Positions 22,701-42,880 of a stretch of 64,000 nt of DNA are shown here, piece by piece. The stretch covers positions 128,212 to 192,211 of the forward strand of contig JAZOAH010000016.1 of assembly GCA_045595395.1 (NCBI GenBank), read 5' to 3'. The DNA comes from Eubacteriales bacterium (GTDB taxonomy: Bacteria > Bacillota > Clostridia > Oscillospirales > UMGS1783). The position numbers and the translations under genes were made by a program. The first letter of the stretch is position 1; each line of letters begins with the position of its first letter. The notes beneath the pieces are model-generated. The model did no database searches. It was not told the origin of the DNA and was given only the letters and a program-made list of their open reading frames with translations.

Positions 22701-22749
22701 CTATACTGTATGATTAAGTCATAATAATTTCTACATAGGAGGATTCCCA

Positions 22750-26289
<3,540 letters not shown>

Positions 26290-26308
26290 CAGATGAATAT
26301 TAACTGAA

Positions 26309-26339
26309 GAAAGGGACGGCATCTTGCCGTCCCTTTTTC
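26309..26339 (+). terminator. Intrinsic terminator of nifJ
   Basis: gggacggca-tct-tgccgtccc followed by ttttt. Confidence 0.85.
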
Positions 26340-27688: not shown

Positions 27689-29011
27689 TCACCTATTATC
27701 CTTTTCATCACGCTCACGCACCATGGTGCGAATGGGCGTACCGGTCAACCCAAAGGTCTCACGGATGCAATTTTCAATATAACGCTTATACGAGAAATGG
27801 AACAGCCGTTTATCGTTAACAAAGACGACAAATGTCGGCGGACGGACGCTGGCCTGGGTAATATAATACAAGCGCAGACGGCGGCCCTTATCCGAGGGCG
27901 GCTGGACTTTGGTAACGGCATCGGCCAGCATAGAATTCAAGCGTCCGGTCGGGATGCGCATACAGTTTTGAGCATTGACAGCATGGATCAGCGGGAAAAG
28001 TTTGTCCACACGCTGTCCCGTCATCGCAGAAATAAACTCGATCGGTGCATAGTCCATAAAGGCCAGGCGACGCTTAATATCCTTTTTAAGCTTTTCCATC
28101 GTGCCTGTTTCTTTATCCACATCATCCCACTTATTGGCAACCACGACACAGGCCTTACCCAGATCGTCGGCGTAACCGGCAATTTTAGTGTCCTGCTCGG
28201 TCACACCCTCACGGGCATCGATGAGCACCAACACAACATCGGCACGTTCTACGGCCATATAGGAGCGTAAAACGCTGTATTTCTCGATATTCTCATCCAC
28301 CTTGCTCTTGCGGCGCAGTCCTGCCGTATCAATGAGCATATATTTGCCGTGCTCATTTTCATAATAGGCGTCGATGGCATCACGGGTGGTGCCGGCGATA
28401 TTGGAAACGATCGAGCGCTCTTTTCCTAAAATGCAGTTGAGCAGCGAAGATTTACCGACATTCGGCTTGCCTATGATGGCCACCTTAATGACATCGGAGT
28501 CTTCCTCGTCGTTTTCCTCGGGCAACAGGTCGCAGACACGGTCGAGAACATCGCCGGTACCGTGGCCATGGACGGCCGAAACTGAAAAGACATCCTCAAA
28601 GCCGAGATTGTAAAACTCATAAAATTCAGGGGGTTCAGCCCCGACACTGTCACACTTATTCACGCAGACCAGCACAGGCTTATTGCTGTGGCGCAGCATT
28701 TGAGCCACCGCCTCGTCGGTAGCGGTGACGCCGGTGGTGATATCGCAGATAAAGAGCACGACATCAGCGCCGTCGATGGCCAACTGAGCCTGCTCACGAA
28801 TCTTAGACAGGATGACATCCCCGGTATCGGGCTCGATACCGCCGGTGTCGATCAAAGTAAAGCTACGATCGAGCCAGGTGCACGAGGCATGCAGCCGATC
28901 GCGGGTAACGCCGGGGACATTGTCCACAATGGACAGACGCTGACCGGCTAATTTATTGAATAAGGTCGACTTTCCCACATTGGGACGGCCGACGACAGCA
29001 ACTACTGCCAT
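27689..29011 (-). CDS. der: Ribosome-biogenesis GTPase Der (EngA)
   Basis: Tandem G domains (GRPNVGKST..DTGG and GKPNVGKSS..DTAG..NKWD) plus a KH-like C-terminus; 440 aa. Confidence 0.96.
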   Translation of the reverse strand: MAVVAVVGRPNVGKSTLFNKLAGQRLSIVDNVPGVTRDRLHASCTWLDRSFTLIDTGGIEPDTGDVILSKIREQAQLAIDGADVVLFICDITTGVTATDEAVAQMLRHSNKPVLVCVNKCDSVGAEPPEFYEFYNLGFEDVFSVSAVHGHGTGDVLDRVCDLLPEENDEEDSDVIKVAIIGKPNVGKSSLLNCILGKERSIVSNIAGTTRDAIDAYYENEHGKYMLIDTAGLRRKSKVDENIEKYSVLRSYMAVERADVVLVLIDAREGVTEQDTKIAGYADDLGKACVVVANKWDDVDKETGTMEKLKKDIKRRLAFMDYAPIEFISAMTGQRVDKLFPLIHAVNAQNCMRIPTGRLNSMLADAVTKVQPPSDKGRRLRLYYITQASVRPPTFVVFVNDKRLFHFSYKRYIENCIRETFGLTGTPIRTMVRERDEKDNR

Positions 29012-29028
29012 GCCCTACCTCCTTTGAT

Positions 29029-29063
29029 AAAAAAAGAGAAGGAAACTCATCGTCGCCTTCTCT
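29029..29063 (-). terminator. Hairpin/terminator between rpmF and der
   Basis: agagaagg / ccttctct forms an 8-bp stem with a 13-nt loop, followed on the minus strand by a T-run. It ends about 10 nt before the der RBS (GGAGG). Confidence 0.55.
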
Positions 29064-29068
29064 GTTTT

Positions 29069-29254
29069 TTACGCCTCTTCCTTTTTCACGACCAGATTAC
29101 CGTCATAGTAACCGCAATTATCGCACACTCTGTGGGGAGCGATCAGCTCGCCGCACTGCTTGCACTTCGTGAGCGCCGGAGCGTCCAGCTTCCAGACGTT
29201 GGATCGACGCAGGTCTCTTCTGGATTTCGATGTTTTTCTCTTGGGAACCGCCAT
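29069..29254 (-). CDS. rpmF: 50S ribosomal protein L32
   Basis: MAVPKRKTSKSRRDLRR.. with a Cys4 zinc ribbon (CKQCG..CDNCG); 61 aa. Confidence 0.96.
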   Translation of the reverse strand: MAVPKRKTSKSRRDLRRSNVWKLDAPALTKCKQCGELIAPHRVCDNCGYYDGNLVVKKEEA

Positions 29255-29288
29255 CTATGACACCTCCTTAACCGGGTTTTATAACTTA

Positions 29289-29732
29289 TCAAGCCGTATG
29301 GTCGCAACTGCCGTGATTGAGATCCTGACCACAGACGGGGCATAACCCCTTGCACTCAGGCGAACAGAGAAGCTTGGACGGATATTCGTCAAACAAGGCT
29401 TCCTCAACAGCCGTGCTCAGATCAATGATGTGGCCGCCTTCCAGGCTGACCAGATCATCACCACCCCCATCGGGGCCGATAAAGCATTCGAGGGGCACAT
29501 TCACATCAAAGGCCACATCGCCAAGACAGCGTGCGCAGGGCGCAACTGCATGAGCGGAGATGGCAGCCTCGATGGCAATGCCCTGATATCGGTTACGCAC
29601 CGTACCTTTGACATGTACCATGCTGAAGGGACGGACCCCATCCCCCATTTCAAGGGATGAAAAATCCTTCTCACATTCAAACGATAGCACAAATTTTTCA
29701 CTGGCCAGTACTTGACCGATGTTCAGTTTCAT
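29289..29732 (-). CDS. yceD: YceD/DUF177 family protein (large-subunit rRNA accumulation protein)
   Basis: Conserved position upstream of rpmF, and the C-terminal CSPECKGLCPVCGQDLN motif typical of DUF177. Confidence 0.85.
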   Translation of the reverse strand: MKLNIGQVLASEKFVLSFECEKDFSSLEMGDGVRPFSMVHVKGTVRNRYQGIAIEAAISAHAVAPCARCLGDVAFDVNVPLECFIGPDGGGDDLVSLEGGHIIDLSTAVEEALFDEYPSKLLCSPECKGLCPVCGQDLNHGSCDHTA

Positions 29733-29807
29733 ACTATTACCTCGATACGCATATTACATTATACATATTTGACCGTTGTATGTCAAGTAATTTCTTAATA
29801 TTTCCCA

Positions 29808-30689
29808 CTAATGTTTAGGAATATACCGACCACGATGAAATGACGGCAAAAGAGCCATCCCCGTCCCAGCGTGACGGCGCCCGGCAACAGGCGTAACCTG
29901 AGCCGAATATCCGCAAGACAGGGCAAATCCCATCAACGCAAGGTCGCACAACTGCGTCGTTATCCCAAACAATCCCTGGTAGACAGGCACCCGCAACATT
30001 GCCAATACCGTGGCCGCTACGGCTGATAGCGCCAGCAATACCACCGACGCAGATGAAACTGCCAAAAAGCTACTTTTCCCACTGCCATCCAGGAGAACAC
30101 GCCCCAACTGCGACAAAAACAGCAACGCAACCCCACAGGATAAAAGTCGGATGGCATAGGTATCGACCGACGGATTGGTGGTAATGGTCATAAAATCATC
30201 GATCAAACGAAGGATATACAATCCGATCGGGCCCAGGATGAGCGTCAAACTGATAGCCGAGGGTAATTGCGGGCCTTTCCAACACAACAAAAAGAAGAAG
30301 CCTACCGACAAGATTGCAAATAATACCTTACCGATAGCCAACCACGGGATCTCCAGTCGATACATCAGCAGAGCGCCCGAAAATTCCTTCCACAGCGCCA
30401 CCAGCGACACAATCAGCTGTGTTGCAAAAACTACGGCGGCGATTGCGGCCATGATGCGAAACACCTTGCCATCCCCCATCGACACCCGGCCGTTACCCCA
30501 AAGGCTCGGCAGCGCAGCCAGGAGCAATACGAAAACGCAAAGCACAACCTGCAGCACCGTCCAAACATCCGATATACTGTAACCGTTGATCCGATCGGTA
30601 CCAAGCAGCAACACAAGCATGCGTACCACGCATAGCAGCGCTGCTCCCGCCATGGTAAATATCATGCGATTTTTTCTTAAAAATTCCAC
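29808..30689 (-). CDS. Hypothetical polytopic membrane protein
   Basis: 293 aa with about 8 hydrophobic helices and no recognisable motif. It has its own transcription unit, with terminators on both sides. Confidence 0.5.
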   Translation of the reverse strand: MEFLRKNRMIFTMAGAALLCVVRMLVLLLGTDRINGYSISDVWTVLQVVLCVFVLLLAALPSLWGNGRVSMGDGKVFRIMAAIAAVVFATQLIVSLVALWKEFSGALLMYRLEIPWLAIGKVLFAILSVGFFFLLCWKGPQLPSAISLTLILGPIGLYILRLIDDFMTITTNPSVDTYAIRLLSCGVALLFLSQLGRVLLDGSGKSSFLAVSSASVVLLALSAVAATVLAMLRVPVYQGLFGITTQLCDLALMGFALSCGYSAQVTPVAGRRHAGTGMALLPSFHRGRYIPKH

Positions 30690-30767
30690 TGCCGCTTCAC
30701 CTCTCTTGCTATTTTACCGCATTTTACCTCAAATTCCAATAGTTCAATCAAAAATTCTTTGTAAATA

Positions 30768-30801
30768 ATTAAAATAGGCAGCGCAGATAACTGCGCTGCC
30801 T
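30768..30801 (-). terminator. Intrinsic terminator ending the GRE-activase-GH3 operon
   Basis: aggcagcgcag-ataa-ctgcgctgcct forms an 11-bp stem directly after the GH3 stop, with a U-rich tail on the minus strand. Confidence 0.7.
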
Positions 30802-30805
30802 AAGC

Positions 30806-32350
30806 TTATTCAATCACAAAGGGCAACTTACCTTTAGCCTGACGGCGACCGGACAGCACTTCAAAGGCATATCCCTGAGAGTCCTCCATCATGTAGCCAT
30901 AAATACGACGCTTCTGCGGCGTCAAATACTTCAAAGCAAAGGGGTTACCAAAATGCACCACAGCCGCAACCTTGCCCGAACGCGACAGAGCATTGATCAC
31001 CACCTCGGTGCGACGGGTCAGACCGTCGGTTCCCAGATAGCTGGTGGTGGTGCAGAAGGTTACAAACACCGCCTGATTATATCCGGTGGCAGCCGTCAGC
31101 ACACGGTCATGATCACGCTGCATGCTGAATTCCGGCAAAAACTCAATATCGGCGTTGGGAAATTCACGATGAATAGCCTCAACAACACGATCGGGATTAT
31201 ACCATTTACCCGTCTGGATCTCATGGTTATCCGTCGGATCGTAATTGTTTTCGGTCAGAACGATGAACAAGGTCTTTTCGTTCTTGTCAATGGCCACATC
31301 GACACCGTCGGTGATAGCCGTAATGCAATCGGCGGCAAGGCCACGAAGCTTTTTCTCATCCTCGGCACTAAACGGGCAAATACCCTGCTGCTGTCCCACA
31401 AATGCCTGAGCCGCCTGTACACGGCGTACTGCCTCATTCAAACGCTCATCACTGATCATGCCGTCTTCATAATTCTTTTTGAGCATTTCAAAGCATTCAC
31501 GCGAAGAGCTGCGGAAGTTGGGCAGTACAATATCGTTACCGGCGGCAATCGCCATACCGTAAACATTCTCCTCACCAAACTTCTGCAAAATACCCATCAT
31601 GGCAAACGAATCGGTATAACACAGACCGTCAAAGCCCATGTTGCGGATAATATCAAGCACCTTTTTGGAGAGCGACGCCGGATAGTCAGGGTCAATATTA
31701 ACATATTTGGTATGGTTGACCATGATGGACGGCAATAATCCCTTGCTCATCAGATACTGATAGGGAATCAGGTCGAACTCCTTAAGCTCCTTCTCCGTCA
31801 GGTAGGATTCGCCTTCAGCCATATGGGTATCCATCGGGTCTTCACATGAGCCGGGATAATGCTTGGCACAGGGCATGAAATGATGCTTCATCATTTCGGT
31901 ATACATTACTTCCAGCTTGCGCGACACCTTGTGCGGATCATCGGAAAGCTTGCGATAAACGCTGCACGGCGCATCGCCACGGCAAATATCGGCGATTTGA
32001 CCCCATGTCGCATTCAAGCCGGCCTTCTGCGACTCACTGACAACACCACGCACATAGGCGAGCAACGACTCGTCATCTTCGCAAGCACCCAGCGTCATCA
32101 GCTGCGTTTTGGGCAGCTCAGACGGCGGCCAGCCCTGCTCGGTATCGTTAACAATGATAATCGGATAATCGGCCGCTTCCTTGATTCTCTGAGCGATCGT
32201 CAGGTCATTATAGGGAACCTGAACGGCACCTACTGCGTGCTTTTTGACCATTTCCAGTGCAAAATCCACGTCATCCTGGCGCTGCGCCACCAATCGATAA
32301 CAGAGCACATGCCCCAGCTTTTGTTCGATTGTCATCTCTTCAATCTTCAT
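30806..32350 (-). CDS. Cytoplasmic glycoside hydrolase family 3 protein (NagZ/beta-glucosidase-like)
   Basis: No signal peptide. AKHYPGSCEDPMDTH matches the GH3 KH(F/Y)PG..D.H motif, and MGFDGLCYTDSFAMMG matches the nucleophile-Asp motif (GFxGxxxSD/TD). Its start overlaps the activase 3' end by 11 nt. Confidence 0.8.
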   Translation of the reverse strand: MKIEEMTIEQKLGHVLCYRLVAQRQDDVDFALEMVKKHAVGAVQVPYNDLTIAQRIKEAADYPIIIVNDTEQGWPPSELPKTQLMTLGACEDDESLLAYVRGVVSESQKAGLNATWGQIADICRGDAPCSVYRKLSDDPHKVSRKLEVMYTEMMKHHFMPCAKHYPGSCEDPMDTHMAEGESYLTEKELKEFDLIPYQYLMSKGLLPSIMVNHTKYVNIDPDYPASLSKKVLDIIRNMGFDGLCYTDSFAMMGILQKFGEENVYGMAIAAGNDIVLPNFRSSSRECFEMLKKNYEDGMISDERLNEAVRRVQAAQAFVGQQQGICPFSAEDEKKLRGLAADCITAITDGVDVAIDKNEKTLFIVLTENNYDPTDNHEIQTGKWYNPDRVVEAIHREFPNADIEFLPEFSMQRDHDRVLTAATGYNQAVFVTFCTTTSYLGTDGLTRRTEVVINALSRSGKVAAVVHFGNPFALKYLTPQKRRIYGYMMEDSQGYAFEVLSGRRQAKGKLPFVIE

Positions 32351-33128
32351 GATCTTCTCCTGATTGATTTATTTTTTGGTAGATCCGAGCCAAAAGATCA
32401 GCATCGGGCACCTGAAATTCTTCCTGCGGCGCAAGACCCAGTCGTTCCGCCTTGGACAATCCCGTCCGATGATAGGGCATCAACTGCACCCGCATCTTGG
32501 GATATTTCTTTTTAAGATCGGCGATCTTTTGAATGAAATCATCATCCAGATTACCCCCGGGCACAATGGGACATCGCAAGACAATGTCAGCCCCCAGGTT
32601 GTATAATACATCTAAATTTTTCAGGATCAGGGTATCCTCTACCCCCGTCAATTCCTTATGCCGAGCGGTAGAGGCCTTGCAGTCGAAGAGGAAGCAGTCG
32701 CACAGCGGTGCGATCTTCTCATAATGCTCGGTCTTGGCATGGCCGCAGGTCTCCATCATAAAGGAGATCCCTTCGGCCTTTGCTGCCTGCGCCAGCCCAT
32801 AACACAGATCAAACTGCGCCATTGGCTCGCCGCCGCTGACCGTCAGCCCGCCGTCTTCCCCATAAAAAGGCTTATCCCGACGAACTGTCTGCATGATCTG
32901 CTCGACAGTCATTTCCTCACCGACCACGTGCCGTGCCCCGGTGGGACAGCCTTCCTTGCACCGACCGCAGCCGATGCACAGCTCACTATGGAATTCTTCC
33001 TGCGCTTGGAAGGACAAGGATTCGATATTATGGCACCATTTACAGCGCAAGGGACAGCCCTTGAAAAAGACGCAGGTGCGAATGCCCGCTCCGTCGTCGG
33101 TGCAATACCGTTGAATATTAAATATCAT
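32340..33128 (-). CDS. Glycyl-radical enzyme activating protein (radical SAM)
   Basis: IQRYCTDDGAGIRTCVFFKGCPLRCKWCHN (the CX3CX2C radical-SAM cluster) and one ferredoxin-like insert (CIGCGRCKEGCP). Start ATG 33128 lies 1 nt after the GRE stop. Confidence 0.9.
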   Translation of the reverse strand: MIFNIQRYCTDDGAGIRTCVFFKGCPLRCKWCHNIESLSFQAQEEFHSELCIGCGRCKEGCPTGARHVVGEEMTVEQIMQTVRRDKPFYGEDGGLTVSGGEPMAQFDLCYGLAQAAKAEGISFMMETCGHAKTEHYEKIAPLCDCFLFDCKASTARHKELTGVEDTLILKNLDVLYNLGADIVLRCPIVPGGNLDDDFIQKIADLKKKYPKMRVQLMPYHRTGLSKAERLGLAPQEEFQVPDADLLARIYQKINQSGEDHED

Positions 33129-33129
33129 C

Positions 33130-35322
33130 TTAATACTCGGTCCGATCAATGATCTCCTGCTGCAAGGTCGGGGTCAATCGCACAAAATAGTCGCTGTATC
33201 CGCCGATGCGCACGATCAGATCGCCATGCTGTTCCGGATTCTCTTTGGCGTCGATGAGTGTCTGTCGATCAACGACATTGACCTGCATTTCCAAACCGCC
33301 CCGTTCTACAAAGGTGCGGACCAACTGCACGAATTTCTTCTGATTCTCGCCTCTGAGATTGTCTTTACCGAATTTGATATTGACCACCATGCCGCCCAAA
33401 AACTCTTTCTGATCCCAAGAGCTCAGCGACAAGATCATAGCCGTCGGTCCGTGGGTATCTCTACCCTGTACCGGCGAACAACCGTCAGAGTAAGAATAGA
33501 ACGCCTTTCTTCCATCGAAGGTGGCGCCCATCTTCGAGCCACGGATGGCATGACCGATATAGGAGAAGGAACCCGGCTGCATACGGCTGCCGCCCAGCAT
33601 CGGCTCGTGGAAGATACGCTTGATGCCCTCCGCCAATACCTCAGCTACGCAGTCGGCCGACTCGTCGTCATTACCGTAGTGCGGCAGATGATTGATGATG
33701 GTTTGACGCAGCACCTCTTCATCCTCAAAATTCTTGCTGATTATATCATAGAATTGAGAGAGCGTCAATGTGTTATTCTTATATACCAATTCCCGAATCG
33801 CCACCAAAGAATCGACGGCATTGGAGAAGCCCAGGAAGACCGGCTGCAAGAACATATACCGCTCGCCGCCCTCGACGATACTGCGTCCACGCCCGATGCA
33901 ATCCTCCACCAAGCAGCATACACGCATCGGGTCATTGCTGTTACGGCTGGCTTCGAGCATGCGTGAGAAATAGGCAAACGGCTTGCTCTTTACATCCTTT
34001 TTCAGCGCCTGGATATACAACTCCTCTAATTGATGATAGTCGGCACAGTCGAGGTTGGCCGCAACCGTCTCCACCAGGATGCGGGGCAGGTCGATCGAAA
34101 AGGCCGTCGAATGGGCACGGGAACGTCCCACTACGCTGATCTCGGCGCAGGTGGTATGAATATAATTGACCGAATCCTCAACCGACACCCCATAGTCACG
34201 CAACGACTGCACAATGCTCTCATCGTTATAGAAGGCCGGATGGGTCACGCCGTGAGAAAGAACTTCGGCGGCATACAGCAGAAGATCCTCGCTCGTCTGC
34301 TTGTTGACCGCCAAGGCACCGTTGGGGTCAGGCTGACGAATATGGTCAAGCGCCGTAATAAACATATAGGTCAGGTCGTTTTCGACCAGATTTCCGTCCT
34401 TATCCTGTCCACCTACGATAAAGCCGCTGGCCGAACGGGAGAAGACACGGGTCGATACACCCAGACACAGGCTGTCAACCATATCCTGCGCCTCTTGCTT
34501 GGTGAGTCTGCCCTCTTCCATATCCTTCTTATAGAAAGGATAGAGATAACGGTCGGGGCGGCCCAAGGGATAGAGACCGAACAGATTGCTTAAGAAGAAA
34601 TGTACGCTTTGGATGGCTTCATGGAAGGTGGTGGCAGGCTCGGCAGGCACCTTCTGCATCACCGCCGCTATACGAAGCAGCTCCGATTTTCTCGGCTCGG
34701 CTGCCGTTTCGGCCAACTCGGCCGCCTTCTTGGCATAGCGAGAAGCCAGATCGAGCACAGCATCCAACTCGATCAGACAGCAACGATAGAATTCATCCTT
34801 TCGAACCACCTCAAACTCCGGGTAGACATCCACATCGTCATAGTCCAATTTATCCATCTGCGCCTGGATCTCAGCCTTGAGCCCATTGATGCCCAAACGT
34901 AACAACTTCTCCAGATCCAATGATAAATGAGTATTGCGCAGACCGAACATCTCAAGCGTCGACGAGGACATGATAAACATATCGCACAACTCATCGTAGC
35001 GCTTTTGTTCCTCCTCGGTATACTCAGGCAGATACAACTGGCCAACCAGCAACTCATCGTCGATAATGATGGGCTGGGCAGCATACAACTCGGCCGCCTC
35101 GGCATAGGAGCGACGCAGACGCGAGGTATAGGCATCGTAATGCTTGAGATATCCCTCCAAAAAGGCCAGGGTTATCCAGCGATCGCCGGTGCAAAAATGG
35201 CGGTACTTTTTATCAATATAAGGATTCGTCTCCTGCGGAACGGGCAGCTTGGCATATTCCACCTTCAGCTTTTGCAGGCGATCACTGATCGGTAATGGTT
35301 GATACGTCATGATACGATTCAT
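33130..35322 (-). CDS. Glycyl radical enzyme, PFL2/dehydratase-like, substrate unknown
   Basis: C-terminal glycyl-radical motif VRIGGYSDYFVRL (Gly708), a candidate thiyl loop HTTCAEISV (Cys392-x-Glu394; the Cys-to-Gly distance matches PFL), and HYGNDD and THGPTA motifs. 730 aa. An alternative start at ATG 35310 is possible. Confidence 0.9.
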   Translation of the reverse strand: MNRIMTYQPLPISDRLQKLKVEYAKLPVPQETNPYIDKKYRHFCTGDRWITLAFLEGYLKHYDAYTSRLRRSYAEAAELYAAQPIIIDDELLVGQLYLPEYTEEEQKRYDELCDMFIMSSSTLEMFGLRNTHLSLDLEKLLRLGINGLKAEIQAQMDKLDYDDVDVYPEFEVVRKDEFYRCCLIELDAVLDLASRYAKKAAELAETAAEPRKSELLRIAAVMQKVPAEPATTFHEAIQSVHFFLSNLFGLYPLGRPDRYLYPFYKKDMEEGRLTKQEAQDMVDSLCLGVSTRVFSRSASGFIVGGQDKDGNLVENDLTYMFITALDHIRQPDPNGALAVNKQTSEDLLLYAAEVLSHGVTHPAFYNDESIVQSLRDYGVSVEDSVNYIHTTCAEISVVGRSRAHSTAFSIDLPRILVETVAANLDCADYHQLEELYIQALKKDVKSKPFAYFSRMLEASRNSNDPMRVCCLVEDCIGRGRSIVEGGERYMFLQPVFLGFSNAVDSLVAIRELVYKNNTLTLSQFYDIISKNFEDEEVLRQTIINHLPHYGNDDESADCVAEVLAEGIKRIFHEPMLGGSRMQPGSFSYIGHAIRGSKMGATFDGRKAFYSYSDGCSPVQGRDTHGPTAMILSLSSWDQKEFLGGMVVNIKFGKDNLRGENQKKFVQLVRTFVERGGLEMQVNVVDRQTLIDAKENPEQHGDLIVRIGGYSDYFVRLTPTLQQEIIDRTEY

Positions 35323-35430
35323 CCTTTCTATTCCGTAGTAAAGATTCTTAATACATTCACAGTATACGCTATAAAAGTTCTTTTGTATAGGATTAAATTA
35401 CGAAAAATAGGAAATTTATAAACTAAATTT

Positions 35431-35462
35431 AAAAAATGGCAGAGAGTTTCACCTCTCTGCCA
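35431..35462 (-). terminator. Intrinsic terminator after the GH36-like gene
   Basis: tggcagagag-tttcac-ctctctgcca forms a 10-bp stem followed on the minus strand by tttttt. It separates the GH36 gene from the GRE operon. Confidence 0.85.
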
Positions 35463-35468
35463 CTTTCT

Positions 35469-38400
35469 TTATTTTGCCGTGTAATAGATCAGATACGACG
35501 TACCGGCATTCTGATAGGAAACCGATATACCGTCAGTCATCAGCTCTTCTCCCGTCCTGGTCCACGTATCGCCCGTATCGGCGTTCGTCACATCATACTC
35601 GCTGTTGGGATTGAGGCCGCGCAGACAATAGGTATCAGTCAATGTCGTTCCTTCCAACGGACAGAAGGTCATCACATAACCTGCGTCCTTCTCCGGCGCA
35701 TAGAACTGGTAGGCGGCATTTTTTTCATCCATATTCTGTTCCCAGTCATCTGCATAGCCGCAGTTACTCGAATAACCAATATCATCGTGAATACCGTAGG
35801 AAAGCATATAATAATCGCCTAACATATATTCCTGATAATCCTCGTATTGATCAAGGATCGGCACCAACCACTCGGCACTATTGATAAGTCCGCCGCTTAC
35901 CGGGTGTACTGCACCCATAACAGAACGCATGTTGTAGGCCTTGTCGTTATACTGCCCGCCTTGACCATCACCGTCCGGATCGCCATCTCCATACCACGGA
36001 TAACCGCCGGCGTGGATGGGCAGCCACCAGGTCAGATTGAAGTTGATCGAACGCTTACCGTCAACGATACTGTGTGCCGGATCATTCGGGTGATCGATGC
36101 AATCGGTTCGCCACAGCGGCACCGACCGCTTCATCATTTCAATATCCAGACGACGACCGCCCGAAGCGCAGTTATCAATGAACAGACCCGGATTGCGCTC
36201 GACCAGCTCATCAAAGAAACGATACAAGTTGGTAATGTACATGATCTCGGTCATGCCTGGGTCACGACTCATCTTTTCATCCTGAGCAGTCCAATACGCA
36301 TTCGGACTGATGTTGAAGTCGTGTCGATACCAGGTGATGTTATTCTCCTGAATAAAATTACTGATAAAAGTGATCATGAACTCGCAGGCATCGTCGTTGG
36401 AGAAATCAAAAAGAAGATCGTTAGACCCCTCAATGGAAATGAAGAAATCATCCGAACACTGCTCGGTAATCCACGAGCCGTTCTTGGCACGTTCCGGCTC
36501 AAACCAAAGCAGCAGCTCCATATCATTCTCTTTCAGATAGTTGCTTACCTCCGATAAGCCATTGGGGAAGCGTGTGTCGTTGAAATACCAGTTGCCGACT
36601 TCATTCTCCCAATCACCGCTCAACCAATCGGTACTCGTATCTATATTTCCAAACCACGAGGCGTCGATCCACAGTCCCTCAACGTCCAATCCGGCTGTTT
36701 TGGCTTGCTCAAGCGCTTCAATAATTTCGTCCTCGTTGTCCTCACCATTCAACGAAATAAAGTTCGGAACCTCGACGATTTGGCCATTCTCGTCTTTGGG
36801 AGTATAGGATTTGAGCATCAAATCACGGAAATTGTTATGACCGGTATCGCTATCCCCATTAAAGAATTGGAGGGTAATGCTGGGCGTGCGGATCTCTTCA
36901 CCGTCATTGAGTGTAATTATTGTGTCGTCCTTAAATCCGGCCGACAGATCGACCGTGCCGTTGGCGTAGGTAAAGTCAGCCTGCCAGTTACCCGTCCATC
37001 CGATGGCACCCATCACACCCTTCGTACCGTTGGAAATTTCAAAATACGGGAAAGCCACATCGGAGGAGCGTCCATCCGGCTCTTTAGGATTATCCGGGTG
37101 ATTTGCACCTTCGGGCAAACTGAAACTTCCCTTTTCCGCCAGATCAATGAAGATCGGCTGAAAATCAGTTATGGCGGCCTTCGAGCCATATGCCGTGATC
37201 AACTGCGCATCCGAGATGTCCAGCGAACTGTTCAATGGTTTGATATTGATAAAGGAAGGATTTGGATGAGTTCCGCTACTCTCTTTCTTGATATGTACCG
37301 TCCAAGAAAGGGCAGCCATCTCTTCGTCTAAGGTAATATCGGCCCATACTATAAACTTACCACTCTCGTTGGCCTCTTGATCCGTTTCGTATCTGAGAGT
37401 CCACTCGGTGTCACTGGGAGTCTCAATCGTTTTCTTCCAGCGGGAGAGGGTATCAATGTTGAGATCAGTGCAGAAGAGGGAAAACAGCGTGTCTTCTTCA
37501 ATCTGCGCTTCCAGCCAGGCTCTGGCATCGGCTGCCGCAGCGCTGTTATTATAATAGGTCTTCACATCGCCGATAGCCTCCACGCCGGTCCCGGAAACAA
37601 ATTTCGGCTTAGCGGCAAGCGAAACAAAGTTGGTCACATTTTCAAAGCCATAGACCCGCAACACGATGACATAATTTCTCGTAGCATCTGCCTGCATTGC
37701 TTCGGCATAGGTCGTAAGGATCGAGGAAGGAATGCCCACCGGGATCGTTTTCTGATGGTTGAGCGTAAGATCCATGGTCATGGTAATGTCGGCATTCTCC
37801 GCATCAGCCAACAGCTCATAGCCCTTCAGTGAATCAAATTTCAGATGGACACCGAATTTTACCTCATAGGCATCCGGATCGGGCTTCATGGCATGCTTGA
37901 TCGTATACGAGAATAGGCGATATCCGCCAAAATCTGTATCATATAGGGGCATCGCCTGATTACCGGATTGCAGAACCAGATGATTCTCGCCCGGCTGATT
38001 CTTTTCTATGACAATACCACCCTTGGCTTCGGCCGTGTCCGTGACCTGGCCAAACGAGATCATATCACCCAAAACCGTAAGCGTGTGACCGTTAAGATCC
38101 AGGGTAGCACCAGCCATGACATAAAGATTGTTAACGCTCTTAGTCTCATCCAGCGTAACATTCGCACTATATGTCGTCCATGCTTCAGTTGCACGGCCAT
38201 CGGTCAGCGTAACAAGCGCTTCATCATTATCATCTGTCTGCGTATCTCGATGCTTATTGGCACTGAGCAGCTTATTATCTTTACCGATAACAACCGAACT
38301 GTCGATCGTGGAGTCACATAGTTCGTGGCAACTGGCGCCGGCCACACCCTGATCGGTCAGCCAAATAAACGTACCGTCAGGAACCGAGTAAGGCGCTTCT

Positions 38401-38852
38401 CCCCACGGCTCATCATGCATATGGTTTGAGGTATTGGCCTCGGGGCAGCGATTAAAAACAGCAAACCAAAGATCGCTATACCCCTCGGTATCCGCTTTCG
38501 CAGCCATCAACTCAGCAGCACCGTACAACTGCCAATACTTGCCTGAGTCGTGGTCGCAAGGACCGTTAGGCCAGTTATTGGCTATGACGATCTTCTGCTT
38601 ATTTTTGATCATGACCGGATAGGAGAATTCCAACGCTACTGTAACCTGAGTGTCCGTGATCTCTGTCACGGTTCCGCTTTCGAGCGAAACTAAGTCTTCC
38701 GAATCATGCCAATACTGAACATCAAAACTGGTGTCTAAACTGACCCCGGTCGTTGCCGTATCGGTAGCACTGGCCGCATAAGACAGCCCAAACAGCATAC
38801 ATACTACCAGAACTAACAGCAAAATCTTTTTAGCCGATCTTATCTTTTTCAT
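35469..38852 (-). CDS. Large secreted protein with a C-terminal GH36-like (clan GH-D, alpha-galactosidase family) catalytic region
   Basis: Signal peptide MKKIRSAKKILLLVLVVCMLFGLSYAASA (start set at ATG 38852). The C-terminal half carries WIDASWFG, WFEPERA, WYRHDFN and NCASGGRRLD, resembling the GH36 KWDMN / CSGGGGR motifs. The N-terminal ~560 aa has no recognised domain. Confidence 0.7.
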   Translation of the reverse strand: MKKIRSAKKILLLVLVVCMLFGLSYAASATDTATTGVSLDTSFDVQYWHDSEDLVSLESGTVTEITDTQVTVALEFSYPVMIKNKQKIVIANNWPNGPCDHDSGKYWQLYGAAELMAAKADTEGYSDLWFAVFNRCPEANTSNHMHDEPWGEAPYSVPDGTFIWLTDQGVAGASCHELCDSTIDSSVVIGKDNKLLSANKHRDTQTDDNDEALVTLTDGRATEAWTTYSANVTLDETKSVNNLYVMAGATLDLNGHTLTVLGDMISFGQVTDTAEAKGGIVIEKNQPGENHLVLQSGNQAMPLYDTDFGGYRLFSYTIKHAMKPDPDAYEVKFGVHLKFDSLKGYELLADAENADITMTMDLTLNHQKTIPVGIPSSILTTYAEAMQADATRNYVIVLRVYGFENVTNFVSLAAKPKFVSGTGVEAIGDVKTYYNNSAAAADARAWLEAQIEEDTLFSLFCTDLNIDTLSRWKKTIETPSDTEWTLRYETDQEANESGKFIVWADITLDEEMAALSWTVHIKKESSGTHPNPSFINIKPLNSSLDISDAQLITAYGSKAAITDFQPIFIDLAEKGSFSLPEGANHPDNPKEPDGRSSDVAFPYFEISNGTKGVMGAIGWTGNWQADFTYANGTVDLSAGFKDDTIITLNDGEEIRTPSITLQFFNGDSDTGHNNFRDLMLKSYTPKDENGQIVEVPNFISLNGEDNEDEIIEALEQAKTAGLDVEGLWIDASWFGNIDTSTDWLSGDWENEVGNWYFNDTRFPNGLSEVSNYLKENDMELLLWFEPERAKNGSWITEQCSDDFFISIEGSNDLLFDFSNDDACEFMITFISNFIQENNITWYRHDFNISPNAYWTAQDEKMSRDPGMTEIMYITNLYRFFDELVERNPGLFIDNCASGGRRLDIEMMKRSVPLWRTDCIDHPNDPAHSIVDGKRSINFNLTWWLPIHAGGYPWYGDGDPDGDGQGGQYNDKAYNMRSVMGAVHPVSGGLINSAEWLVPILDQYEDYQEYMLGDYYMLSYGIHDDIGYSSNCGYADDWEQNMDEKNAAYQFYAPEKDAGYVMTFCPLEGTTLTDTYCLRGLNPNSEYDVTNADTGDTWTRTGEELMTDGISVSYQNAGTSYLIYYTAK

Positions 38853-39042
38853 GCAATCATACCTCTGTTCTTGCATTTATTCGAATATTTGTAATCATAT
38901 TCAGTTTTATTATACATAACATCCGGCCATTCGTCAACAACTTTTTCCTCGACATATTCTAAACGGCTCGTCACATAGTAAATGCGTCAAAAGCCATTTT
39001 GCTCGTTGCTTCAATACGCCGGCGTTACCCCCTCTGTTCTTG

Positions 39043-39071
39043 TGTTATTTCCCCTTCCCGGCGCATAGACT
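39043..39071 (+). promoter_or_regulatory. Candidate sigma-E-type sporulation promoter of spoIIID
   Basis: TGTTATT-N14-CATAGACT compared with the remembered sigma-E consensus kmATATT-N14-CATACAhT. It ends about 30 nt before the spoIIID ATG. Confidence 0.35.
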
Positions 39072-39101
39072 GTAGCAAAACCCGTCTATGGGAGGTTTTC
39101 A

Positions 39102-39392
39102 ATGAAAGGACAGCCGGAGGACAGGGCGGTCGAGCTCGCCCATTACATAATCGAGAACGGGGCGACGGTGCGTGCCGCCGCCAAAAGGCACGGCATATCA
39201 AAAAGCACCGTCCATAAGGACATTACCGAACGCCTGCCCCGCATCAGCGGCAGCCTGGCCGAGCAAGTCAAGCAAGTGCTCAATTATAACAAAGCGCAGC
39301 GCCATCTGCGTGGCGGTGAGGCAACCAGACAAAAATATGAGCAGATCGCCATCGTAAAAAAAACACGCACTAAAAAAACGGAATCGTTATGA
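39102..39392 (+). CDS. spoIIID: Sporulation transcriptional regulator SpoIIID
   Basis: TVRAAAKRHGISKSTVHKDITERLP..LNYNKAQRHLRGGEATRQKYE aligns almost residue for residue with B. subtilis SpoIIID (TVRVIAKEFGVSKSTVHKDLTERLP..HLRGGEATKLKY). Confidence 0.93.
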   Translation: MKGQPEDRAVELAHYIIENGATVRAAAKRHGISKSTVHKDITERLPRISGSLAEQVKQVLNYNKAQRHLRGGEATRQKYEQIAIVKKTRTKKTESL

Positions 39393-39404
39393 TTCCGTTT
39401 TTTT
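39372..39404. terminator. Bidirectional terminator formed by the overlapping 3' ends of spoIIID and the AraC gene
   Basis: aaaaaaacggaatc-gttat-gattccgttttttt forms a 14-bp stem. Both stop codons (TGA 39390-92, TAA 39389-87) lie in the loop. Confidence 0.8.
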
Positions 39405-40232
39405 ATAGGCTCTGGGCGTAACACCCTTATAGCGTTTGAATACCTTACAGAAATAACTCAAGTCATTAAACCCGCTGTCATAAGCGGCACGGGTGATGGA
39501 GATCCCCTTGACCGAAATCTCATAAGCGGCGTTATCGATACGAAGCTCATTGATATAGTCGATGACCGTTTTGCCGGTATACTCCTTAAAAATGCGGCAC
39601 AGATACTTGGCACTCAGCCCCGACACCTCCGCCAGCATCTCAAGGGTAATGGGGTCGGCAAAATTCTCCTCGATCCAGTCCAGTAGCCCTGTCACCGTCT
39701 TGGCCTGTTGGTTGTGCTGTAACCGTTGCAAGGGGCGTATATAACCACCGCTGTACAGTTGCGACATAAGCCGAAACAGCAACCCACACACCGCCATCTC
39801 GTAATAAGGCGCCCCTTCCTTCATGGCAGCAAACAGTGCACGGCAGGTCTCCGCCACCTCACCATCCGCCAACGGCCGATCCAGCATCACGGCAGCATTG
39901 ATCAGCGGCGCAATATAGGTTTCCACCACATCCTTTCGCCCTCGCCTGAGCAGACTCAGATCAAAAACCAAACACTCGTAATAACACCCCTGCGGCTCCC
40001 CGCCATGCAGACTACCGCCCGGCACCAGCAGAATATCCCCCTTCTCCAAACGCATCTCGGTACTGTTGAGATAGATGGGAAACACCCCCTCCAGCACTCG
40101 AATGATCTCAAACTCCTTATGCCAATGCGGCACCATAATGTACTGCGGATGGCTGCTGTCCAAATTATAATATTGTATAGGAAAATCGGGCGCACCGTGC
40201 CGTTTTCGCTCAATATAATCGATGTATTTCAT
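39387..40232 (-). CDS. AraC-family transcriptional regulator (cupin sensor plus HTH)
   Basis: N-terminal cupin (HWHKEFEIIRV..GDILLVPGGSLHGG) and a C-terminal double HTH (LAEVSGLSAKYLCRIFKEYTG..AAYDSGFNDLSYFCKVFKRYKGVTPRAY). Divergent from fucI. Confidence 0.88.
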   Translation of the reverse strand: MKYIDYIERKRHGAPDFPIQYYNLDSSHPQYIMVPHWHKEFEIIRVLEGVFPIYLNSTEMRLEKGDILLVPGGSLHGGEPQGCYYECLVFDLSLLRRGRKDVVETYIAPLINAAVMLDRPLADGEVAETCRALFAAMKEGAPYYEMAVCGLLFRLMSQLYSGGYIRPLQRLQHNQQAKTVTGLLDWIEENFADPITLEMLAEVSGLSAKYLCRIFKEYTGKTVIDYINELRIDNAAYEISVKGISITRAAYDSGFNDLSYFCKVFKRYKGVTPRAYKKTES

Positions 40233-40345
40233 AAAAATCCCCCAAATAGTGAATATCGTTATAGTTTTTCCTGGTAATTATACAAGTATTATAACGATAT
40301 TCATACTATAATGCAATTAGAAAATAATTTTCGGAGGTAAAAATT

Positions 40346-42127: not shown

Positions 42128-42138
42128 GGAGAATAGCA

Positions 42139-42822: not shown

Positions 42823-42827
42823 TGCAA

Positions 42828-42858
42828 AAGAGGAATTGCCACGCAATTCCTCTTTTTC
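42828..42858 (+). terminator. Hairpin/terminator between fucA and the kinase gene
   Basis: aagaggaattgc-cac-gcaattcctctt forms a 12-bp stem followed by ttttt. It ends about 10 nt before the kinase RBS. Confidence 0.7.
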
Positions 42859-42880
42859 TAACTATTCGGAGGTATGATAT

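Follow-up and report, generated by a model that had tools for sequence, protein, structure and literature searches.

A short glycyl radical enzyme of an uncharacterised family encoded in one operon with its activase and a GH3 protein

In Clostridium butyricum, a glycyl radical enzyme (GRE), its activase and an alcohol dehydrogenase are encoded in one operon. To our knowledge, YbiW and PflD alone among characterised GREs use substrates derived from carbohydrates, and the known YbiW/PflD pathway acts on 6-phosphates. GRE eliminases and isomerases are recognised by a CXE motif together with a His residue, and in glycerol dehydratase the leaving hydroxyl is proposed to receive its proton from His164 (PMC13450708). 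Here we describe a locus from an uncultured gut bacterium that encodes a GRE of this type, within a stretch of 64,000 nucleotides (the window).

A three-gene operon on the minus strand

The locus comprises minus-strand genes for a GRE (33130..35322, 730 aa), a GRE-activating radical-SAM enzyme (activase; 32340..33128, 262 aa) and a NagZ-like GH3 protein (30806..32350, 514 aa). Only the single base 33129 separates the GRE stop codon (TAA, 33132-33130) from the ATG of the activase gene (33128). The stop codon of the latter (TGA, 32342-32340) lies downstream of the GH3 ATG at 32350, which results in an overlap of 11 nt, and a ribosome binding site (GGAGAAG) precedes this ATG. Both junctions, as described in the initial annotation, could be read in the sequence.

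The upstream boundary is a hairpin with a 16-bp stem followed by TTTTTT (35468-35431, minus strand). It is located immediately 3′ of the stop codon (35471-35469) of a gene for a GH36-like protein, and therefore terminates this gene. Downstream, a terminator-like hairpin with a 12-bp stem, eight GC pairs and a T-run (30802-30775, minus strand) follows the GH3 gene. This confirms the earlier view of a tight unit between terminators: GRE, activase and GH3 form a real three-gene operon. A promoter-like match is found in a promoter/operator block, CCTATACAA...GTATACTGTGA (35357..35391, minus strand), with TATACA as -35-like (35389-35384) and TATACT as -10-like element (35366-35361). The block is kept in the AraC-GRE intergenic regions of five related loci (L059, L053, L051, L024, L081). 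Translation of the GRE probably begins at the second ATG (35310; M5; 726 aa), because the only RBS-like stretch (AAAGGA) directly abuts the first ATG and because the checked orthologues start at the M5 position.

The secreted GH36-like protein encoded immediately upstream (1135 aa) has the Pfam domains Melibiase and GH36C, and a fucI-fucA-fucK cluster is present at 40346-44395, so that the surroundings reported before were recovered.

Motifs, predicted fold and family of the GRE

The GRE matched the Pfam families PFL-like (1.8e-96) and Gly_radical (1.2e-26, 93.7 bits). Its glycyl radical motif R705-I-G-G708-Y-S (33193..33210, minus strand; Gly708 codon 33201-33199) aligns with RVAGYS of glycerol dehydratase. 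The loop T-T-C392-A-E394 (34141..34155, minus strand; Cys392 codon 34149-34147), which holds the predicted thiyl-radical Cys and the Glu of the CXE motif, aligns with G-C433-V-E435 and is invariant across the family. Both motifs and their spacing of 316 aa are present as initially annotated. His132 (codon 34927..34929, minus strand) corresponds to His164 of glycerol dehydratase in the pairwise alignment, and is invariant in the family and also in a wider radiation of short GREs. This is an intact GRE of the Cys-x-Glu (eliminase/isomerase) type. A shortened N-terminal region had also been proposed; about 36 residues are indeed missing there compared to glycerol dehydratase, but this is modest, and the rest of the length difference is due to small internal deletions.

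An AlphaFold2 model of the GRE (pLDDT 83.6, pTM 0.86) gave 1,2-propanediol dehydratases (9rco, 5i2g) and glycerol dehydratase (1r8w) as best Foldseek matches, with TMq values of 0.86-0.88. Model confidence is lowest (pLDDT <50) in the active-site loops at 295-298 and 391-399.

The activase exceeded the cut-off of NCBIfam TIGR02494 (PFLE_PFLC; 251 versus 174 bits) and has the Pfam domains Radical_SAM and Fer4. Translation and motif scan revealed the radical-SAM cluster motif C25-x3-C29-x2-C32 (33033..33056, minus strand). An alignment of 17 activases revealed a single ferredoxin-type motif, C51-IG-C-GR-C-KEG-C-P (32943..32978, minus strand), in which a deletion of 31 residues has joined the two motifs of more distant relatives into one (for background on these motifs see PMC13450708, section 2.1). 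Considering the intact ORFs and motifs, we predict that the GRE is a functional enzyme with a dedicated activase.

Comparisons to curated models, solved structures and cluster representatives all place the GRE outside every characterised clade, as had been suspected. It scored under every curated NCBIfam cut-off (377 bits versus 678 for the PFL2-3 subfamily) and reached about one third of every equivalog cut-off. The closest solved GRE scored 298 bits, with an identity of at most about 30%, while higher scores than for any solved GRE (310-871 bits) were reached by dozens of cluster representatives that are uncharacterised and mostly 690-740 aa long. By these scores, the family is part of a larger radiation of short GREs that is likewise uncharacterised, and its motifs assign it to the Cys-x-Glu branch, the home of 1,2-eliminases and isomerases. 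Its members (49-100% identity, about 726 aa) stem from gut metagenome-assembled genomes (MAGs) only. More than 120 homologues with 55-87% identity are all 717-751 aa long, except for one outlier of 824 aa; they are unnamed or "hypothetical", and some sources list them as "formate C-acetyltransferase" or "pyruvate-formate lyase". Candidate pocket positions are almost invariant over the whole identity range, and the family, which comprises uncultured gut Clostridia and Victivallales, is probably isofunctional. The main enzyme of the operon belongs to a widespread, oxygen-sensitive, uncharacterised radical-enzyme family of uncultured gut bacteria.

Gene context in the family and the GH3 link

To get an overview of the genomic context we surveyed about 45 family loci. 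A gene for an AraC-family regulator was found near the GRE gene in 27 of the 34 loci of the first survey, mostly directly upstream and divergent. The activase gene adjoins the GRE gene in about two thirds of the family loci and is not adjacent in about one third. Seven loci carry a gene for a short-chain dehydrogenase (SDR) directly after the GRE gene; most loci have none. In a Pfam census that covered 143 ORFs of the family neighbourhoods, neither a recurrent glycosidase nor a dedicated transporter was found, and neighbouring families each recurred in at most five ORFs. Microcompartment shell genes were found neither in the window nor in any family locus, while the positive control (L014) was detected. 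The evolutionary unit is therefore AraC-GRE-(SDR)-activase, although a search of the window for the cognate AraC gene did not find one. Genes for GH38, GH39, DUF4832, CE4, GDSL and fucose isomerase lie near several family members; given these carbohydrate-active and esterase neighbours, the substrate may derive from a sugar instead of being a simple diol.

The third gene product matched the N-terminal domain of Glyco_hydro_3 (Pfam, 3.4e-34). Its best solved relatives are the beta-N-acetylglucosaminidases 3wo8 and 5bza; the GH3 phosphorylase 5vqd also matches. No hydrophobic stretch was seen by eye in the N-terminus (MKIEEMTIEQKLGHV), and the protein is predicted to be cytoplasmic. With Thermotoga 3WO8 (NagZ/NagA-type GH3) it shares this localisation, the GH3 N-terminal domain, a two-domain architecture of about 500 aa, the KH-x-PG...D-[ST]-H region and the nucleophile Asp. 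The motif K163-HYPGSCEDPMD-T-H176 (31823..31864, minus strand), the NagZ-type Asp-His dyad region, aligned with KHFPGHGKAREDSH of 3wo8, and the putative nucleophile Asp247 (31612-31610, minus strand) with ISDAMEM. However, the E-value is only 6e-22, H-G of the motif is changed to S-C, and the score for NCBIfam NagZ is 65 bits at a cut-off of 207.

The initial annotation had suggested that the GRE acts on what the GH3 protein releases, with GH3 as the defining part of the system. As a general rule this does not hold: the GH3 gene follows the activase gene in only 3 of about 45 loci, namely the window, the 95%-identical L003/L004, and L059, and the census showed no recurrent glycosidase. At this position it is not found in L001, L024, L053, L051, L080 and L081. 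In the MAGs of L001 and L024, a GH3 orthologue with 80% identity is encoded on a separate contig, where it occupies the same backbone position as in the window (GH36-like, GH3, membrane protein, YceD, Der). The membrane protein (29808..30689, minus strand, 293 aa) is predicted, has no Pfam or NCBIfam match and is the downstream partner of GH3; in the window it forms a separate transcription unit. The pair is kept in L004, L057, L058, L077 and L079, with or without GRE and activase upstream. In the L024 MAG it is L077 that retains the partner, and L076 ends before this position. The large family of GH3 proteins of about 520 aa mostly occurs without a GRE. The link to GH3 is lineage-specific and not family-wide.

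The trio does recur beyond this genome, even if it is rare in the family. L059 encodes a GRE with 76% and a GH3 protein with 66% identity to those of the window, and this locus has its own divergent AraC gene and different flanking genes. In a neighbour-joining tree, the GH3-linked loci form two non-sister lineages. Both trios share the identical 11-nt overlap, which argues against a purely accidental juxtaposition, and since the overlap is the same although the flanks differ, GRE and GH3 may be functionally linked inside these lineages. In a full-text literature search, no publication on an operon of GRE and GH3 genes was found, in agreement with the earlier statement that no characterised GRE is known to be co-transcribed with a GH3 gene.

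Candidate reactions and comparison with known systems

We favour the view, with a probability of roughly 65%, that the locus encodes a self-contained C-O eliminase (dehydratase-type) module for some hydroxylated substrate, with a GH3 link restricted to certain lineages. The activase would put the radical on Gly708, from where it would move to Cys392. The Cys392 thiyl radical would take a hydrogen atom from the carbinol carbon of the substrate, Glu394 would deprotonate the hydroxyl on this carbon, and the group leaving from the adjacent carbon, which is most likely a hydroxyl, would be protonated by His132. The carbonyl-product radical would then regain the hydrogen atom from Cys392. In many relatives the SDR encoded between GRE and activase may reduce the aldehyde or ketone product, so that the cassette would be a small NADH-consuming sink or a catabolic entry step. 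The AraC-GRE-(SDR)-activase unit is expected to function with neither a microcompartment nor a dedicated transporter. In the window, the cassette retains the promoter, but the cognate AraC gene has been lost; the cassette lies between the secreted GH36-like gene and the GH3-membrane protein pair, and GH3 has become translationally coupled to the activase.

GH3 and GRE may also act in one pathway, with GH3 cleaving an imported glycoside and so freeing an aglycone or a sugar (GlcNAc or a different beta-linked residue), and the GRE dehydrating or cleaving the product. Translational coupling by overlap and RBS, the same trio with other flanks in L059, a CE4 polysaccharide deacetylase gene directly after the activase gene in L080 and frequent glycosidases in the wider neighbourhoods are consistent with this. 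We nevertheless regard such a pathway as unlikely: candidate pocket residues are invariant with or without a linked GH3, in addition to the few, non-sister linked loci, the separate contigs in the L001 and L024 MAGs and the many GH3 proteins of this size without a GRE. Equally doubtful is a microcompartment-free diol dehydratase that converts (S)-1,2-propanediol (from fucose) or glycerol and, together with an SDR or alcohol dehydrogenase, yields an alcohol as electron sink. Propanediol and glycerol dehydratases are the nearest solved structures and sequences, the fucose cluster and a Zn-dependent alcohol dehydrogenase gene are 5-11 kb away, a fucose isomerase gene is near the GRE in L016 and L037, the operon logic resembles that of C. 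butyricum, and a transporter-free, self-contained cassette suits a small diffusible substrate. However, identity is just 25-30%, the score is far under the PFL2-3 subfamily cut-off, and fucose isomerase is close in two independent lineages only. Moreover, the residues that we take to contact glycerol in glycerol dehydratase are all replaced (S282 by G249, Y339 by A298, D447 by S405, Y640 by F586), and by the same alignment logic there are also differences at the corresponding positions of propanediol dehydratase (Ser, Phe344, Asp, Val). This comparison, based on pairwise sequence alignment to glycerol dehydratase and not on coordinates, suggests a pocket that is roomier and differently lined than that of either dehydratase, and the polar residues R296, Y588, H591 and R/Y at 292, which are specific to the family and invariant in it, suggest a larger polar ligand.

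It appears quite improbable that the enzyme, like YbiW and PflD, is an isomerase that cleaves a C-O bond by radical chemistry and so opens a cyclic ether, for instance an anhydro-sugar, with no net elimination. GRE isomerases also retain the CXE motif (PMC13450708), the close structural matches include YbiW (8id7; TMq 0.87), and carbohydrate genes are abundant in the neighbourhoods. In the Pfam census, however, kinase, PTS and aldolase genes were not consistently adjacent. The score for NCBIfam NF007437 (named formate C-acetyltransferase), presumably the PflD-type model, was 280 bits at a cut-off of 1109. That the protein is a pyruvate or 2-ketobutyrate formate-lyase, as some database names imply, or a decayed inactive copy can hardly be maintained. 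The loop is Cys-Ala-Glu and not Cys-Cys as in PFL, the PFL equivalog scored 96 bits at a cut-off of 994, and PFOR for pyruvate oxidation is encoded in the window; the invariance of all catalytic motifs over 49-100% identity and the intact ORFs argue against decay.

As to the C-O eliminase module that we favour, glycerol dehydratase DhaB1/DhaB2 of C. butyricum (1R8W/1R9D) is the best solved sequence match (298 bits, E 1e-87; TMq 0.86). Common features are the Cys-x-Glu loop, the His164 equivalent, the RxxGY radical motif, an activase encoded directly downstream and no association with a microcompartment. In contrast to DhaB1, the window GRE is about 60 residues shorter (726 versus 787 aa), about 25-30% identical, altered at the presumed glycerol-hydroxyl-binding residues (S282G, Y339A, D447S, Y640F in the alignment) and below the PFL2-3 subfamily cut-off; its relatives carry a divergent AraC regulator, and if a partner reductase is encoded, it is an SDR instead of an iron-type alcohol dehydrogenase. 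The 1,2-propanediol dehydratases (Roseburia inulinivorans 5I2A/5I2G; 9RCO series) are the top Foldseek matches (TMq 0.86-0.88) and second-best by sequence (292 bits), share CXE and His, and recall the nearby fucose catabolic cluster. They differ by an identity of 26-28%, by the pocket positions and by the loop bearing Phe344, which is about 9-10 residues shorter in the window GRE; shell genes are absent from the window and all family loci, and aldehyde dehydrogenase and phosphotransacylase genes do not recur near family GREs. YbiW and PflD (1,5-anhydro-hexitol-6-phosphate C-O cleavage; 8ID7, 8ID0) share the CXE motif and the fold (TMq 0.84-0.87), but are only 24-25% identical (233-248 bits), and sugar-phosphate pathway genes are not consistently adjacent to family GREs. 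Choline TMA-lyase (CutC) and hydroxyproline dehydratase (HypD), eliminases that are prevalent in gut microbiomes, share the Cys-x-Glu loop and a dedicated activase with the window GRE. The equivalog scores of the window GRE are far lower (CutC 309 bits versus 1050, HypD 320 versus 1100), the substrate-specific acidic residues of CutC and HypD are not evident in it, and the gene contexts differ.

Organization of the cassette and its surroundings

Three consecutive genes on the minus strand encode the glycyl radical enzyme (GRE), its radical-SAM activase and a NagZ-like GH3 protein. The six-frame ORF list places them at 33130..35322 (730 aa), 32340..33149 (first ATG at 33128) and 30806..32350 (514 aa), respectively. 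The initial annotation had described these genes as translationally coupled and flanked by terminators, and both points were borne out. The GRE stop codon TAA (33132-33130) is separated by one base from the ATG of the activase gene, which begins 1 nt past this stop, and the GH3 ATG (32350), preceded by GGAGAAG, lies upstream of the activase stop TGA (32342-32340), resulting in an 11-nt overlap. A consensus scan returned strong hairpin-plus-T-run sites on the minus strand on both sides, one directly after the stop codon of the GH36-like gene (35468-35431), the other directly after that of the GH3 gene (30802-30775). The positions of the catalytic motifs proved exact as well, R705-I-G-G708-Y-S being encoded at 33210-33193 and T-T-C392-A-E394 at 34155-34141. 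The proposed length of 730 aa holds for the ORF, but probably not for the protein. The sole RBS-like stretch (AAAGGA) leaves no spacing to the first ATG (35322) and lies 11 nt upstream of ATG 35310, and the GRE orthologues that were checked begin at the equivalent of ATG 35310. The enzyme therefore most likely starts at ATG 35310 and comprises 726 aa.

The third protein has a GH3 N-terminal domain (Pfam PF00933, 119 bits). Its best solved relatives are the two-domain beta-N-acetylglucosaminidases 3wo8 (E 6e-22) and 5bza, and the GH3 phosphorylase 5vqd was also matched. A NagZ-type region is present (K163-HYPGSCEDPMD-T-H176), and the D174-T-H176 dyad and the putative nucleophile Asp247 aligned with 3wo8. 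The score against the NCBIfam NagZ equivalog was 65 bits, below the cut-off of 207, and there is no hydrophobic signal-like stretch at the N-terminus of the protein.

Upstream of the cassette, a 1135-aa Melibiase/GH36-like protein is encoded, the N-terminus of which appears signal-peptide-like by eye. Beyond it follow spoIIID, an AraC-family gene divergent from fucI-fucA-fucK, and a Zn-ADH gene. The genes downstream of GH3 encode a 293-aa membrane protein, YceD, Der, PlsY, a small RelA/SpoT-domain protein and pyruvate:ferredoxin oxidoreductase (PFOR). The 293-aa multi-pass membrane protein (29808-30689, minus strand) has no Pfam or NCBIfam match. Its gene is also kept downstream of the gene for the GH3 of about 515 aa in five compared loci (L004, L057, L058, L077, L079), and a role of the protein in transport of the GH3 substrate is conceivable. 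A 1202-aa minus-strand ORF without domain match (22714-26322) was rejected as a gene; it is spurious, an antisense shadow of the overlapping plus-strand gene for the 1179-aa PFOR (22750-26289). An Rfam search of positions 29000-41000 for riboswitches gave sub-threshold chance matches only.

Relationship of the GRE and its activase to characterized enzymes

Pfam assigns the GRE to the PFL-like (E 1.8e-96) and Gly_radical (E 1.2e-26; 93.7 bits versus a cut-off of 22.2) families. The radical motif R705-I-G-G708-Y aligned with RVAGYS of 1r8w and fits the RVxG[FWY] type. Cys392, about 315 residues upstream of the radical glycine, is invariant in the family, i.e., the window GRE and the 49-100% identical short GREs from gut MAGs. 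Its loop, T-T-C-A-E, has no adjacent Cys-Cys pair of the PFL type, and C392-A-E394 conforms to the Cys-x-Glu of eliminases and isomerases. According to a 2026 review, the CXE motif is kept in all C-O, C-N and C-S eliminases and in the three isomerases, and in glycerol dehydratase the Glu serves as base and His164 as acid (PMC13450708). In the alignment with glycerol dehydratase, Cys392, Glu394 and Gly708 fall on Cys433, Glu435 and its radical glycine, and His132 falls on His164 (equivalent to His160 of HypD). His132 is invariant in the family, and throughout the wider short-GRE radiation it is kept with one exception, protein cluster P0299.

An AlphaFold2 model derived from 22 family sequences (pLDDT 83.6, pTM 0.86) has the predicted ten-stranded beta/alpha barrel fold of GREs. 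In a Foldseek comparison, the TMq to the 50 best-matching solved GRE chains was 0.79-0.88. The best matches were the propanediol dehydratases 9rco and 5i2g and glycerol dehydratase (TMq 0.86-0.88, 25-28% identity), with CutC, YbiW and HypD close behind. Among all PDB sequences, B12-independent glycerol dehydratase was likewise the best match (298 bits), followed by propanediol dehydratase (292 bits), CutC (about 281 bits), 9rco, a 1,2-propanediol dehydratase by name (280 bits), HypD (255 bits), PflD and YbiW (233-248 bits), IslA (240 bits) and HplG (207 bits); BSS (125 bits) and PFL (85 bits) scored much lower. In the profile search the GRE stayed under every curated NCBIfam threshold. It reached 377 bits versus a cut-off of 678 for TIGR01774, the broad PFL2-3 model (formate C-acetyltransferase/glycerol dehydratase subfamily), and 96-320 bits versus cut-offs of 994-1150 for the HypD, HpsG, CutC, HpfG, PflD-type, IAD, HPAD and PFL equivalogs.

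The residues of glycerol dehydratase that contact glycerol, which we take to be S282, Y339, D447 and Y640, were reportedly described by O'Brien et al. in 2004. By alignment, all four are replaced in the GRE (S282 by G249, Y339 by A298, D447 by S405, Y640 by F586), and the corresponding residues of propanediol dehydratase are not matched either. The family has invariant polar residues of its own: R296, Y588, H591, and R or Y at position 292. Since these contacts are replaced and family-specific polar residues are present, the sequence alignment suggests a roomier, differently lined pocket; the active-site loops of the model are of low confidence. The earlier proposal that the GRE is distinct from the characterized clades is thus upheld, both by scores below all NCBIfam cut-offs and by the aligned pocket residues. 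We place the GRE in the eliminase/isomerase branch, outside all of its characterized clades.

The activase scored 251 bits versus a cut-off of 174 on TIGR02494, the GRE-activase subfamily model, and has the CX3CX2C motif (C25-x3-C29-x2-C32). A 31-residue deletion is seen in four aligned copies (the window and loci L004, L001 and L024). Through it, the two CX2CX2CX3C ferredoxin motifs that ordinary GRE activases possess have become one (CIGCGRCKEGCP, 32943-32978, minus strand). Within the sub-clade of at least 73% identity the activases have 257-262 aa, and those of L051, L053, L059, L080 and L081 were grouped with the short form by length. Relatives of at most 63% identity have activases of 295-323 aa and keep both ferredoxin motifs; two motifs are likewise present in the activase encoded with GRE cluster P0026. 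With regard to the 8 extra Cys of typical activases, all of which PFL-AE lacks, the fused form is intermediate, and it amounts to a natural experiment on auxiliary clusters that are poorly understood in GRE activases.

The short-GRE family and its gene context

A word-indexed search returned more than 120 homologues with 55-100% identity to the GRE, which are unnamed, labelled "hypothetical protein" or loosely tagged as PFL; cluster-name look-ups gave no informative annotation. Exact-sequence look-ups found neither the window GRE nor its GH3 among recorded proteins. Their lengths are 717-751 aa, the sole exception being protein cluster P0102 (824 aa). The most abundant family member, the 90%-identity cluster P0026, comprises 832 sequences, and those of its contigs that were read stem from human-gut metagenome assemblies. 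Among species-representative genomes, 29 loci of the family were recorded, every one in a MAG, from unclassified Eubacteriales, Clostridia, Oscillospiraceae, Acutalibacteraceae, Christensenellaceae and Victivallales of human, ruminant and rabbit gut. Across the alignment of the 49-100% identical members, the candidate pocket positions hardly vary, which suggests one function. Two sub-groups can be told apart (R292/H404/S245 versus Y292/Y404/F245).

An exhaustive search of 50%-identity representatives gave one full-length family member (54% identity, 871 bits) and then dozens of graded clusters, mostly of 690-740 aa and 310-561 bits, all above the best characterized GRE. Nearly all of the wider clusters that were aligned keep His132, Cys-x-Glu, Phe586 and His591, while the other candidate pocket positions vary. 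These distant short GREs are essentially restricted to MAGs, and the genome scan revealed no cultured organism among relatives of more than about 33% identity. A single-protein scan of metagenome contigs, the patterns of which were too specific, yielded one fragment and otherwise little but distant GREs of about 30% identity. The radiation (protein clusters P0242-P0299, loci L082-L111) consists mostly of GREs of 690-740 aa that are 32-43% identical to the window GRE. It extends over MAGs of Clostridia, Limnochordia, Planctomycetota, Chloroflexota, Lentisphaeria, Treponema and others, and in gut Clostridia an AraC gene is often located divergently upstream and an activase gene downstream. It has no characterized member, and no cultured host among the closer ones.

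A comparison by tblastn and ORF clustering covered about 45 loci of the family, taken from genomes and metagenome contigs. Of the first 34 loci, 27 have an AraC-family gene in the neighbourhood of the GRE, mostly directly upstream and divergent, and the activase gene directly follows the GRE gene in about two thirds of the loci. In seven loci (L025, L029, L031, L043, L045, L046, L080) a 240-aa classical short-chain dehydrogenase (SDR) without a specific equivalog is encoded right behind the GRE, in five of them between GRE and activase. The SDR of L080 consists of two ORFs (107 and 132 aa), probably as the result of a frameshift. When 143 further ORFs lying within 6 kb of the GRE in 24 loci were searched with Pfam, no recurrent pathway partner emerged in more than about five ORFs; the most frequent families were EamA (5 ORFs), xylose-isomerase-like TIM barrels (3 ORFs) and components of ABC transporters. 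Occasional neighbours are GH38, GH39, a 652-aa protein, DUF4832, a CE4 deacetylase, GDSL and BD-FAE esterases and ABC sugar transporters; a fucose isomerase lies near the GRE in two independent lineages. A tblastn search with PduA located microcompartment shell genes neither in the window nor in any of the family loci; it did detect the positive control, GRE locus L014. Since only AraC, GRE, SDR and activase recur, we consider AraC-GRE-(SDR)-activase as the evolutionary unit, which is often situated within carbohydrate-utilization regions without a fixed partner there.

The promoter/operator block CCTATACAA...GTATACTGTGA (window 35391-35357) is also conserved in the AraC-linked relatives, where it occupies the interval from the divergent AraC gene to the GRE gene. 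No orthologue of this cognate AraC is present within the 64-kb window. The AraC gene at 39387-40232 was rejected as regulator of the cassette: it is divergent from fucI and its product is 24-29% identical to the cognate AraCs, and it is therefore assigned to the fucose cluster. The spoIIID gene (39102-39392, plus strand) is located between this AraC gene and the GH36-like gene. In loci L053 and L054 spoIIID is directly adjacent to the cognate AraC-GRE-activase cassette, and we therefore take it to mark the ancestral position of the cassette in these spore-formers.

Loci L018-L023, human gut metagenome contigs carrying P0026, share a DUF4832-AraC-GRE-activase block. IS genes (HTH_28 and rve integrase) adjoin it downstream in L020-L022 and upstream in L023, and in L019 the GRE is present as a tandem duplicate. 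The adjoining IS genes and the duplication suggest that the block is a mobile cassette under selection. Three loci harbour a further AraC-associated GRE beside the family member (L016, 11145-13376; L040, 19237-21483; L034, 6591-8705), two with a Cys-Trp-Asp loop and one with Cys-Asn-Glu. As substrate-variant paralogues they were dismissed, since they are only 22-28% identical and belong to different uncharacterized families.

The initial annotation had left open whether the trio with GH3 is conserved or exclusive to this genome. It is not exclusive: GH3 follows the activase also in a 95%-identical relative (L003/L004) and in L059. In the latter, GRE and GH3 are 76% and 66% identical, a divergent AraC gene is present, the 11-nt activase/GH3 overlap is identical and the downstream gene differs. 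Conservation across the family was not observed. GH3 does not follow the activase in L001, L024, L051 and L053 (80-84% identity), in L080 and L081 (73-77%), or in any locus of at most 63% identity, and the two GH3-linked lineages are non-sister in a neighbour-joining tree. In the MAGs of L001 and L024, other contigs (L076, L077) carry a GH3 orthologue with 80% identity. Behind GH3 in L077, L057 and L079 comes the gene for the 293-aa membrane protein seen in the window, two ORFs beyond it in L077 (149 and 440 aa) match YceD and Der of the window in size and order, and in L077 and L057 the gene before GH3 has local similarity to the window's GH36-like protein. From this shared order we derive a backbone of GH36-like protein, GH3, membrane protein, YceD and Der, and the window reads as this backbone with GRE-activase placed between the GH36-like gene and GH3. 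The GH3 linkage is thus real and not unique to the window genome, yet patchy, and it cannot define the function of the family.

Possible reaction and comparison with known systems

The GRE module would be best described as a dehydratase-type C-O eliminase acting on a hydroxylated substrate, a reading drawn by analogy to which we assign a probability of roughly 0.65. As in other GRE eliminases, the activase would generate the Gly708 radical, and the Cys392 thiyl radical would abstract a hydrogen atom from the carbinol carbon. Glu394 may then deprotonate the hydroxyl group to give a ketyl-type radical, from which a vicinal leaving group, probably hydroxyl, would depart with the help of His132. 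The product radical would take a hydrogen atom back from Cys392, yielding an aldehyde or ketone that the SDR, where present, could reduce. Because the cassette is self-contained, without transporter and microcompartment, a small, diffusible or internally generated hydroxylated compound is favoured; the pocket replacements, the cupin-type AraC partners and the carbohydrate-rich surroundings favour a compound larger and more polar than glycerol or propanediol.

A plain diol dehydratase would agree with the top-scoring sequence and structure matches, and the replaced contact residues speak for a different pocket; we regard this model as unlikely. An isomerase-type reaction, for which the CXE motif shared with isomerases speaks, appears quite improbable. 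PFL-like chemistry or a decayed enzyme is hardly credible: the catalytic motifs are invariant in the family, and the Cys loop and the low score on the PFL equivalog set the protein apart from PFL.

That the GH3 product is the GRE substrate would agree with the translational coupling, and since the trio has apparently been inherited or transferred as a unit, a lineage-specific functional link of GH3 and GRE is conceivable. The linkage is restricted to few lineages. We consider this model doubtful, and the distinct GRE-glycosidase catabolic system that had been proposed is not sustained on present evidence. It is a long shot that the family comprises the first GREs acting directly on an unphosphorylated carbohydrate or glycoside-derived product. 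Such a reaction, radical C-O cleavage or dehydration of a sugar, amino-sugar or aglycone that the coupled GH3 would release in the cytoplasm, is a similarly distant prospect. If true, the MAG-only, AraC-controlled short GREs would be hidden radical carbohydrate-processing enzymes of gut anaerobes.

GREs perform chemically difficult anaerobic reactions and thereby shape metabolite pools of the gut such as those of TMA, H2S precursors, p-cresol, skatole and propionate. The family escapes annotation pipelines and appears as "hypothetical protein" where named at all. Since the cassette is compact (regulator, enzyme, optional reductase and activase), it is tractable for heterologous reconstitution, and the family is a good target for enzyme discovery. 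Identification of the substrate would provide a new reaction in gut anaerobic metabolism and a foothold in the larger short-GRE radiation.

A GRE with its activase is a well-known kind of system. The window clade and the larger short-GRE radiation have no characterized member, and uncharacterized GRE clades such as this one are listed as open (PMC13450708). A full-text literature search turned up no paper joining a GRE and a GH3 in one operon. The cassette departs from the known pattern by a shorter enzyme, by its AraC-controlled, microcompartment-free organization, by the single fused ferredoxin motif in the activase of the sub-clade and by the occasional translational coupling to GH3.
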